Shown: one piece after another, positions 25,780 through 26,757 of the stretch | How positions within the stretch are numbered: position 1 is the first letter of the stretch | Layout of the letters: every line of letters begins with the position of its first letter | NCBI GenBank assembly: GCA_015152565.1 | Contig: SUTT01000002.1 | Span: forward strand, 18,788 to 82,787 | DNA length: 64,000 bases | Direction: 5' to 3' | Source of the DNA: Cyanobacteria bacterium SIG27 | Lineage (GTDB): Bacteria > Cyanobacteriota > Vampirovibrionia > Gastranaerophilales > Gastranaerophilaceae | Notes under the pieces: generated by a model | Seen by the model: only the letters and a program-made list of their open reading frames with translations | What the model was told of the DNA's origin: nothing | Databases searched by the model: none | Made by a program: the position numbers and the translations under genes

Positions 25780-25807
25780 TAAAGCTTTTAACTGATTTTG
25801 CCGATAA
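25780..25807 (+). promoter_or_regulatory. Sigma-28 (FliA/SigD)-type promoter
   Basis: TAAA (25780-25783), then 16 nt, then GCCGATAA (25800-25807). The -10 element matches the consensus 8/8 and the -35 reads TAAAGCTT. An AAGGAG RBS and ATG 25846 follow. Confidence 0.7.
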
Positions 25808-25845
25808 ATTAACTGTTAGACAATAAAGCTTTAAGGAGAATAACC

Positions 25846-26757
25846 ATGGGGCTTTCAGCAAGCCAAGCTAGATTTCTGCAATTAACCGCTAGACGTGGTG
25901 ATATTGAGTATGAAGCGCAACAAATTAACTTTCAAAGATTACAATTATCTAACAAGTTAGCTGATGCTTCTGAAAAATATCAAAATTCTACTGCAAATCG
26001 TAAAATGGTTTTTACTTTTAATAACGGCACTGAAAGACAAAAAGTTGACTTGTCTTATTCAAATTATAAAACCTATATGAATCAACAAGAGGGTTCTGCT
26101 GGTATTGCAACCGATAGATATTATCTTGTTTCTTCTTCTGGAAATAAGCTTGTTGTAGGCTCGCAAGAAGAAATGGATAAAATTATACAAAATGGAACCG
26201 ATAGATATTCTCAAAGTTCCGTTGATGCTGCTAAAGCAAAATACGAAGCTGCCAAAGCAAACGATACCTTGTCTGAATTAACTGCTCAAGAAATTGAATT
26301 GGCAAATTTAGATACTTCCAAAATGCAAATTGAATTTACCAGAGATGAAAATGGCAATGTTTATAGCGATTATGTTAGTCGCAAATTCACAGAAAAAGAT
26401 TTTATGATTGTTCCAGATTTAGACGACACAACTAATTTCCAAACAGCAATTCAAAATGGTACATATTATTTTGCAAAATATGAACAAAACTCTGTGACTG
26501 GCGAAATGGAACTAAGAACAGAGGGTTGGGACGTTCTTGGCGGCGGAGCAATTGCCGAAGAATACGATAAATCAGATGATGCTCAAGCAGAAGCAGAATA
26601 TAACACTGCGCAAGATAGAATTCAAGCACAAGATAAAAAACTTGAATTAAGACTAGACCAGCTTGAAAGTGACAGAAACGCAATTCAAACAGAAATGGAA
26701 TCAGTTAAAAAAGTAATGGAAGATAACATTGATTCTACATTTAAAATATTTAGCTAA
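25846..26757 (+). CDS. 303-aa protein with helical N- and C-terminal segments flanking a variable core (flagellar-axial-like architecture), function unknown
   Basis: The N-terminus MGLSASQARFLQLTARRGDIEYEAQQ resembles the SGLxAxQxxL start of rod/hook/HAP proteins. The C-terminus is QDKKLELRLDQLESDRNAIQTEMESVKKVMEDNIDSTFKIFS. It is preceded by a sigma-28 promoter and followed by a terminator. Confidence 0.75.
   Translation: MGLSASQARFLQLTARRGDIEYEAQQINFQRLQLSNKLADASEKYQNSTANRKMVFTFNNGTERQKVDLSYSNYKTYMNQQEGSAGIATDRYYLVSSSGNKLVVGSQEEMDKIIQNGTDRYSQSSVDAAKAKYEAAKANDTLSELTAQEIELANLDTSKMQIEFTRDENGNVYSDYVSRKFTEKDFMIVPDLDDTTNFQTAIQNGTYYFAKYEQNSVTGEMELRTEGWDVLGGGAIAEEYDKSDDAQAEAEYNTAQDRIQAQDKKLELRLDQLESDRNAIQTEMESVKKVMEDNIDSTFKIFS

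Follow-up and report, generated by a model that had tools for sequence, protein, structure and literature searches.

A 64,000-nucleotide (nt) stretch of contig SUTT01000002.1 from Cyanobacteria bacterium SIG27 (referred to here as the window) contains a gene for a 303-amino-acid (aa) protein that is preceded by what appears to be a promoter for the flagellar sigma factor sigma-28 (FliA/SigD). The locus raises the question of whether this protein, which the original prediction described as an undescribed late-class flagellar regulon member with axial-like ends, belongs to the flagellar regulon and what it might do there. The analysis indicates that the sigma-28-type element is genuine and conserved throughout much of a protein family that appears to be built on a helical hairpin and whose sampled members are confined to Melainabacteria (Vampirovibrionia). 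We favor reading it as a new flagellar-regulon family whose products would probably be exported without Sec and surface exposed. The family has no name or model in the libraries searched, and its promoter type is textbook.

All of the sequence features from which the prediction had been made are present: TAAA-N16-GCCGATAA at 25780-25807, AAGGAG, the ATG at 25846, the 303-aa open reading frame (ORF), and a terminator made up of the perfect 20-nt palindrome ATGAGCCTATATAGGCTCAT (26787-26806) and the T run TTTTCTTTTC behind it (Table 1). The GCCGATAA element ends 38 nt 5' of the ATG in the orientation of the gene, the transcription start would lie near 25815, and TGTAA(A/C) boxes lie about 27 nt 5' of the -35 element. 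No sigma-70-like site scoring above chance was found in the intergenic region 5' of the gene, and its leader and terminator region had no match in Rfam. Regulation of the leader by a CsrA-type protein was weighed but discarded, since its one GGA lies within the Shine-Dalgarno sequence. The gene is a monocistronic unit. Taken alone, the promoter match is only marginally unusual and thus weakly significant: the full pattern occurs once in the window against an expectation of 0.09, and 9 of 100 shuffles of the window gave at least one match. With a relaxed 13-point score, this promoter is the sole 13/13 site in the window, and every one of the 11/13 sites lies within coding sequence.

The significance of the promoter rests on its conservation in orthologs, paralogs, and GC-rich relatives rather than on this single match. 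The loci compared were the best 80 of at least 452 coding stretches recovered in a scan of one genome per species, and the family set comprised 98 members in 87 loci in total. A 12-point motif score of at least 10 was reached by 45 of 80 family members and by 56 of 962 other ORFs; at a score of at least 11, the counts were 21 of 80 and 10 of 962, and 4 of those 10 others proved to be further family members. The 13-point version (TAAAG-N14-16-GCCGATAA) scored at least 11 for 47 of 94 members and 43 of 2066 other ORFs, or roughly half versus 2%. In 14 aligned orthologous upstream regions, the blocks that are kept are TAAAG, GCCGATAA, the leader block TGTTAGACAATAAAG, and AAGGAGAA, while the spacer between the -35 and -10 elements varies freely. 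GACAAT within the leader block is invariant and the remainder of the block mostly near-invariant, and AAGGAGAA, the Shine-Dalgarno region, is invariant as well. The element is also found outside AT-rich genomes. A 274-kb Vampirovibrionales record with a GC content of 54% contains just two 12/13 sites, one of which is 72 nt 5' of a 109-aa family member, and the CCGAT core precedes the ortholog in three further Vampirovibrionales genomes (loci of 54 to 58% GC). The claim of a sigma-28-type promoter is thereby upheld as a conserved element and not a chance match.

The TGTAA(A/C) box is conserved in the same 14 upstream regions and also occurs 5' of canonical flagellin genes; it is a possible activator site or UP-like element. 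Between -160 and -40, TGTAACA or TGTTACA is present at 45 of the 80 family members, compared with 46 of the 951 other ORFs. An extended form of the box, TGTAA(A/C)...TGTAACAAA, was observed about 20 to 25 nt 5' of the -35 element at L007 to L086 and at the window gene and is about 12-fold enriched at family genes.

The 303-aa protein begins with MGLSASQARFLQL and is 100% identical to [quoted passage not shown]; its relatives are labeled Gastranaerophilales. A word-indexed search returned 683 relatives, with no precomputed Pfam domain among the 120 matches listed, and an exhaustive profile search yielded 3,749 cluster representatives (50% identity), of which 2,466 had an E value of ≤1e-10. Neither Pfam (E up to 10) nor NCBIfam had a match for the 303-aa protein, and the description of it as uncharacterized holds for the family as a whole. 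The best 80 of the at least 452 stretches are essentially all from Melainabacteria. A few carry the labels "Muribaculaceae" or "Eubacteriales," which we read as wrong because the loci of two "Muribaculaceae"-labeled assemblies have FliN or FliF matches. Many assemblies contribute several family loci, with tandem pairs being common and dispersed paralogs also present.

Long helical ends around a core had been predicted, and the AlphaFold2 model of the 303-aa protein (mean predicted local distance difference test score [pLDDT], 86.5) has them, with helices at residues 2 to 49 and 245 to 302 and an alpha/beta middle; a 243-aa relative was modeled with the same topology (pLDDT, 80.2). Among 95 Gastranaerophilales members, mean pairwise identity falls from 0.54 in the N-terminal 45 residues and 0.36 in the C-terminal 55 to 0.21 in the middle, which ranges from 121 to 603 residues in proteins of 221 to 703 aa. 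Some of the inserts are Thr rich, and no Pfam domain was found in those of ten large members. At the N terminus, M1, G2, S6, Q7, R9, L13, T14, and Q25 are invariant, and the C-terminal helix follows the pattern DDA.AEAEY...DKKLEL.L..LE..R.AI.TE..SV.KV..DNI.S.FK.FS. The 303-aa protein contains no Cys, no His, and no hydrophobic segment (maximum Kyte-Doolittle 19-residue average, 0.24), and hydropathy gives it neither a signal peptide nor a transmembrane segment. Cys is scarce in the family overall (0.34% versus 1.17% in other ORFs), and 50% of members versus 5% of other ORFs are free of it. The lack of a Sec signal, the low Cys content, and the helical termini are permissive for, although not diagnostic of, flagellar type III substrates. 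One metagenomic protein (P0244; 974 aa, JGI metagenome; 11 matched stretches) consists of tandem copies of the whole hairpin-plus-core module.

In Vampirovibrionales the family member is reduced to 109 aa, an N-terminal and a C-terminal helix joined by a loop, with the middle absent. This form is 76 to 98% identical across Vampirovibrionales, with a mean column identity of 85%. Directly 3' of it, in four Vampirovibrionales loci with different flanks, are two conserved genes. The product of the first is Gly/Ala rich, moderately hydrophobic, and about 270 to 335 aa long, with conserved coiled-coil N- and C-terminal ends, and the second encodes a protein of about 80 to 100 aa. The Vampirovibrionales copies of these partner genes had no precomputed Pfam match, and the larger partner had no significant match among PDB sequences. 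The same two-gene module also lies 3' of a family member in two Gastranaerophilales loci (L054 and L061), and at L061 it stands beside further family paralogs, about 2.8 kb from a fliF homolog. Because Vampirovibrionales have the hairpin alone and the operon recurs in Gastranaerophilales, the hairpin appears to be the ancestral functional unit, with the 303-aa gene as a derived, tip-decorated paralog. No conserved neighbor gene such as a chaperone was found family wide; synteny is seen at the clade level only.

One 109-aa member came from a tblastn match in a phage collection, to "Microcystis phage MaAM05" (MW495066.1), and MW495066.1 has been treated as a phage in comparative studies (PMC11448039, PMC8875630). 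The record (L167 to L173; 273,876 bp, "complete genome," 54% GC) carries genes for ribosomal proteins, rpoD, trpS, glyS, metG, and other aminoacyl-tRNA synthetases, along with smc/scpAB, secDF, fliM, pomA, cheB, and a gene annotated as fliA, and its proteins are 76 to 98% identical to those of Vampirovibrionales metagenome-assembled genomes. From its ribosomal, rpoD, tRNA synthetase, and smc gene content, it is evidently a fragment of a Vampirovibrionales chromosome filed as a jumbo phage. A phage origin of the family was rejected, since this single match is a misfiled bacterial contig. The plasmid collection gave no match to the family.

The neighborhoods of family genes suggest a link to flagella, in that relatives recur beside late or structural flagellar genes. 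Family genes were found divergent from fliF-fliG-fliH-fliI (L005/L013), directly 3' of two flagellin genes and 1.5 kb from flgE (L068; also L066), convergent with a cluster consisting of flgI, a flgJ-like gene, an unassigned gene, flgN, flgK, and flgL (L075), and directly 5' of a flagellin gene (L142/L146/L151). With a limited seed set, 13 of 80 family loci have a flagellar gene within 10 kb. We estimate roughly that about 6% of random 20-kb stretches from a flagellated 2-Mb genome would include one of the seed families, and the enrichment of flagellar neighbors near family genes is suggestive but not proof. The source organism itself has flagellar genes: FliM, a FliN-like protein, and a CheY-like receiver-domain protein are encoded at 3323-5183 of the window.

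Whether the motif is a flagellar one in this lineage is less straightforward. The FliA/SigD consensus across phyla equals the family motif in both hexamers and in spacing, and the motif was also found 5' of one flagellin type (L096/L097), of a gene for a protein with an FlgE/F/G D1 domain, and of a gene for a glucosaminidase-domain protein. Glucosaminidase domains are known from FlgJ and from the sigma-D-dependent autolysins of Bacillus. Thus, some known flagellar genes do carry the motif, although most of the canonical flagellin genes do not: in a set of about 80 from low-GC gut contigs, the majority lack it and carry instead another conserved promoter region, ..AAATGTGGAATATAATATA.., and a leader with a tract of 10 to 12 G residues. 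As most canonical flagellin genes are without it, the motif does not mark the classical late class in this lineage, which suggests that the flagellar transcription hierarchy of Gastranaerophilales is a non-textbook one. The expectation that the gene would be an undescribed late-class member of the flagellar regulon therefore stands in part: the protein is undescribed, the sigma-28-type promoter is conserved, and flagellar neighbors exist, but the promoter is mostly missing from canonical flagellin genes.

The flagellin upstream regions have features of their own. Those at L087 to L166 and in L068 (7676-7915 and 8774-8935) contain TGTAAC boxes and ..GTTATAAAAT..AAATGTGGAATATAATATATATAAGGATATG.., and in the leaders CCCTGAAACCCTTACGGCTGTAG is followed by the G tract about 30 to 60 nt 5' of the start codons (L100 to L166; e.g., L146, positions ~5940 to 5975). 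The tract is a candidate phase-variation switch or structured RNA; the leader had no match in Rfam.

No FliA-family sigma factor is encoded in the window, and no discussion of fliA or of the sigma factors of this lineage was found in the Melainabacteria literature examined. Two candidates occur in related genomes. One is a sigma factor of about 210 aa that is highly conserved, is encoded about 5 kb away from one family sub-clade, and possesses a sigma-70-like promoter of its own (L028, L030, L036, L038, L042, L043, L048, and L049; e.g., L043:15669-16319). The other, of 282 aa and group 3-like, adjoins flagellin genes.

Overall, the explanation that we propose begins with transcription of the 303-aa gene from the FliA/SigD (sigma-28)-type promoter at 25780-25807, which would be ended by the intrinsic terminator. 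The cognate sigma factor of the family promoter would be the flagellar FliA, and the gene, as a member of the FliA regulon, would therefore be coexpressed with late flagellar genes. The core of the family is an antiparallel hairpin formed by the N-terminal helix of about 48 aa and the C-terminal helix of about 58 aa; in Gastranaerophilales its tip bears a small conserved beta core and a hypervariable insert, and the gene has multiplied into several paralogs per genome. The protein would leave the cell without Sec, most simply via the flagellar type III export gate, with the conserved hairpin mediating export or self-assembly and the variable tip being surface exposed and under diversifying selection. 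We hold the putative non-Sec export and surface display with lower confidence; both are suggested by the absence of a signal peptide, the depletion of Cys, the paralogy, the hypervariability of the tip, and the near invariance of the minimal hairpin. Architecture, composition, and paralogy all fit a non-Sec, surface-exposed substrate. Taken jointly (FliA/SigD-type promoter, Melainabacteria hairpin family, non-Sec flagellar export, and variable surface tip), the whole is in our judgment about evenly poised between right and wrong.

Several observations weigh against this explanation. Besides the canonical flagellin genes that lack the motif, two sub-clades of the family lack it, and 67 of the 80 family loci had no flagellar neighbor in the limited seed set. 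The ~210-aa sigma factor has FliA/WhiG as its best specific NCBIfam match, scoring 57 to 59 bits where the cutoff is 189.6. The Pfam, hhalign, Foldseek, and PDB searches described below revealed no type III substrate that resembles the family in sequence or fold. Finally, a preprint puts the share of Gastranaerophilales genomes with complete flagellar sets at only about 25% (bioRxiv 10.64898/2026.04.24.720558).

Many of these points would be accommodated if the family were not flagellar at all, with TAAAG-N15-GCCGATAA being read by another alternative sigma factor and the family belonging to a separate envelope or secretion module. Such a module would agree with the three-gene arrangement that recurs in the four Vampirovibrionales loci with different flanks and in L054 and L061 without a known domain in any of its three products, and with the occurrence of at least 452 family stretches among species representatives set against that ~25% of complete flagellar sets. 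Against it are the identity of the motif to the cross-phylum consensus, the presence of the motif before flagellin, FlgE/F/G D1, and glucosaminidase genes, the repeated immediate adjacency to flagellin genes, fliF, and flgKL, and the proximity of the L061 cluster to a fliF homolog. We consider a nonflagellar family unlikely, although of the alternatives it is the one that fares best.

Next in standing, and also unlikely, is a late-expressed but nonexported cytoplasmic coiled-coil component or regulator of motility, such as an FliJ/SctO-like stalk, an export chaperone, an anti-sigma factor, or a motor-associated protein. A very strongly conserved helical hairpin of about 109 aa and the absence of a signal peptide from the 303-aa protein would suit such a role, and no fliJ-like gene was seen after fliI in L005. 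FliJ, SctO, and V-ATPase subunit D contain a two-helix antiparallel coiled coil similar in length to the family hairpin, and V/A-ATPase subunit D shares the coiled-coil hairpin fold of FliJ. The top topological analogs in Foldseek are coiled-coil hairpins with a distal domain, namely, the SMC hinge with its coiled coil, V/A-ATPase subunit D (the Thermus protein; probability 0.72, E value 0.46), IpaD, and colicin Ia; in addition, 4 of 35 family members had noise-level matches to PF02090 (SpaM). However, all of these similarity scores are nonsignificant, and FliJ, SctO, and subunit D are single copy and nonvariable, whereas the hairpin family is multicopy with hypervariable tips. The size range and 21% identity of the tip, the Thr-rich linkers, the paralogs and tandem duplicates, and the Cys depletion point to an exposed, diversifying protein more than to a cytoplasmic component kept at fixed stoichiometry.

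A bolder form of the export explanation takes in the operon partners. The hairpin, the Gly-rich protein of about 300 aa, and the coiled-coil protein of about 90 aa might constitute a new extracellular appendage or a tip-and-pore module that uses the flagellar type III gate and also works with reduced export sets, the tips in gut lineages being a hypervariable, host-facing antigen or adhesin that is flagellin-like but arose independently. EspA, PrgI/MxiH, and IpaD likewise form a hairpin of N- and C-terminal helices with a tip that can carry extra domains, and, like the family, they have a small minimal form and a hairpin that is very highly conserved. IpaD is among the topological Foldseek matches, nonsignificantly (E ≥ 0.24). 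No injectisome genes were seen, and the likeness to type III needle and tip systems is one of architecture only. We regard this scenario as doubtful and place it behind the two preceding ones.

The original prediction had also pointed to flagellar axial proteins, and an extremely diverged member of that superfamily, serving as a structural part of the filament, junction, or cap, would have helical termini and a beta-containing middle, as in hook and rod proteins, as well as a sigma-28-type promoter and flagellar neighbors. The start of the protein (GLSASQAR) had been likened to the SGLxAxQ start of the rod, hook, and hook-associated proteins (FlgB/C/F/G/E/K; PF00460, PF06429, PF22692), with which the family shares a GL.A.Q-like N-terminal motif. 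That resemblance holds to the extent that hhalign places its best local alignment with FlgK at precisely this site, but its probability is 0.4% and its E value 0.15, and there is a gap in place of the NNIAN..T.GY motif. The C-terminal Flg_bbr_C motif is likewise absent. A Y-x-L/V-V-x-x-x-G-x-x-V-V strand in the family superficially resembles, by eye, the GFF.V...G of the D1 domain, for which Pfam was negative. None of PF00669, PF00700, PF00460, PF06429, and PF04316 matched the 303-aa protein (E ≤ 10) or 35 diverse relatives (E ≤ 1), for which Pfam returned coiled-coil noise only, and hhalign gave probabilities of 0.6% against the flagellin/FlgL alignment of the lineage, 0.2% against FlgE, and 0.1% against an FlgG-like protein. 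Foldseek searches with two AlphaFold2 models against the PDB and with one against BFVD found nothing below an E value of 0.04, flagellin, junction, and cap chains appearing at 0.18 to 0.73 with TM scores of ≤0.22; PDB sequence searches with family profiles A1 and A5 returned only designed or generic coiled coils. Because Pfam, profile-profile, and Foldseek comparisons show no relation, the axial-like termini appear to be a matter of resemblance and not of homology. The minimal form, a two-helix hairpin of 109 aa, is also shorter than any known axial protein, and canonical flagellin, FlgK, FlgL, and FlgE exist in the lineage (PMC3787301). Homology to axial proteins as predicted thus found no support, and we judge a diverged axial protein improbable. 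Least credible of all, to the point of being effectively refuted, is a chance promoter match in the AT-rich intergenic DNA of an AT-rich genome next to an ordinary hypothetical gene, for which the shuffles leave some room but which is contradicted by the conservation of the motif over dozens of orthologs and paralogs, including those in genomes of 54 to 58% GC, and by its placement and orientation, both of which suit the ribosome-binding site and ATG.

Two specific identities were also considered. The 303-aa protein gave no Pfam match to FlgM (PF04316), and L075 has a separate 93-aa ORF at the flgM position. The protein is also not the flagellin of these bacteria, since canonical flagellins exist in the lineage; canonical flagella genes were reported by Di Rienzi 2013 and Soo 2014, in which the hairpin family is not mentioned.

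Among the closest comparisons for the exported hairpin family that we favor are flagellin (FliC/Hag; PF00669, PF00700) and short, secreted flagellin-like proteins such as Campylobacter FlaC. Like the hairpin family, flagellin has a monocistronic gene with a strong terminator and, in many bacteria, a sigma-28-type promoter, and it has conserved helical termini, a hypervariable middle, several paralogs, and no signal peptide; some family copies stand directly beside flagellin genes. The two differ in that the family has no sequence, profile, or fold match to flagellin, has one helix per terminus where flagellin has the four-helix D0+D1 arrangement, and has a minimal form of just 109 aa, and in that canonical flagellins coexist with it under a mostly different promoter (PMC3787301). 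With lower confidence, we suggest that an unrelated fold may here have arrived at the design principle seen in flagellin.

The coordinates of the features are collected in Table 1. As for the setting of the gene in the window, it had been said to lie in an accessory stretch, which is correct for the DNA beside it but not for the gene itself. At orthologous loci, a gene of 160 to 200 aa lies divergent and just 5' of the family gene, whereas in the window 6.4 kb (19405-25735) is inserted between the two. The insertion encodes ORFs of 835, 1149, and 115 aa, none with a solid domain match. Because orthologous loci pair the family gene with the divergent neighbor, the gene occupies a chromosomal position that is conserved, and what is accessory is the inserted DNA next to it.

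Table 1. Features of the 303-aa gene and its product (window positions) and of the partner module (locus positions)
Feature	Coordinates	Strand	Basis or remark
TGTAA(A/C) boxes, TTGTAAATAATTGTAACA, inside a 10-bp tandem repeat	25736..25753	+	Read from sequence
-35 element TAAAG, sigma-28 type (TAAA = 25780-25783)	25780..25784	+	Kept in orthologs and paralogs
-10 element GCCGATAA	25800..25807	+	Consensus 8/8; 16-nt spacer after TAAA
Conserved 5' leader block TGTTAGACAATAAAGC	25814..25829	+	14 orthologous upstream regions
Ribosome-binding site AAGGAG	25833..25838	+	7 nt 5' of ATG
Coding sequence, 303 aa, Melainabacteria hairpin family member	25846..26757	+	ATG 25846; stop TAA 26755-26757
Conserved N-terminal helix, aa 2-49, MGLSASQARFLQLTAR...	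25849..25992	+	AlphaFold2; mean pairwise identity 0.54
Alpha/beta middle, aa 50-244: small conserved beta core and hypervariable insert	25993..26577	+	Identity 0.21
Conserved C-terminal helix, aa 245-302	26578..26751	+	AlphaFold2 and conservation
Intrinsic terminator	26784..26809	+	Terminator scan: 11 pairs, then CTTTTC
Two-gene partner module	L167:6458-7748; L174:6428-7719; L175:3593-4757; L176:3368-4786; L054:11076-11885; L061:6078-7385

Other parts of the window and of the related loci contain further unusual genes. Very large ORFs (633 to 1330 aa) without any Pfam family occur at 19405-25735, 28146-32138, 32189-37436, and 54481-56925. The 1149-aa ORF (21988-25437) has a weak calpain-like Peptidase_C2 match; the same weak match is found in a 474-aa protein that is encoded just 5' of the family member in L075 and has an 11/13 sigma-28-like site, and further giant proteins without Pfam families in related loci also carry the sigma-28 motif. 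Immediately 3' of the 303-aa gene, at 27048-27875, is a gene for a protein with a prepilin-type N-terminal methylation motif (PF07963), which is not a conserved neighbor elsewhere. A 1222-aa fused restriction-modification protein (N6_Mtase, Eco57I, Methylase_S, and HSDR_N) is encoded at 44900-48568, adjoining a 1263-aa UvrD-like helicase and a PD-(D/E)XK nuclease (41109-44900).

Gastranaerophilales are widespread gut bacteria whose interaction with the host is essentially unknown, and we know of no cultured representative. Thousands of unannotated clusters that combine a flagellar-type promoter, assembly-like helices, and a hypervariable, putatively exposed tip make the hairpin family a prime candidate for a major surface or secreted antigen alongside flagellin. 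If its members are exported by the flagellar apparatus, they would represent either type III substrates of a new class or a filament component not described before, and their export would assign a definite role to the partial sets of flagellar genes kept by many nonmotile members. The nearly invariant 109-aa form of Vampirovibrionales is a convenient starting point for study, since Vampirovibrio chlorellavorus grows in coculture.

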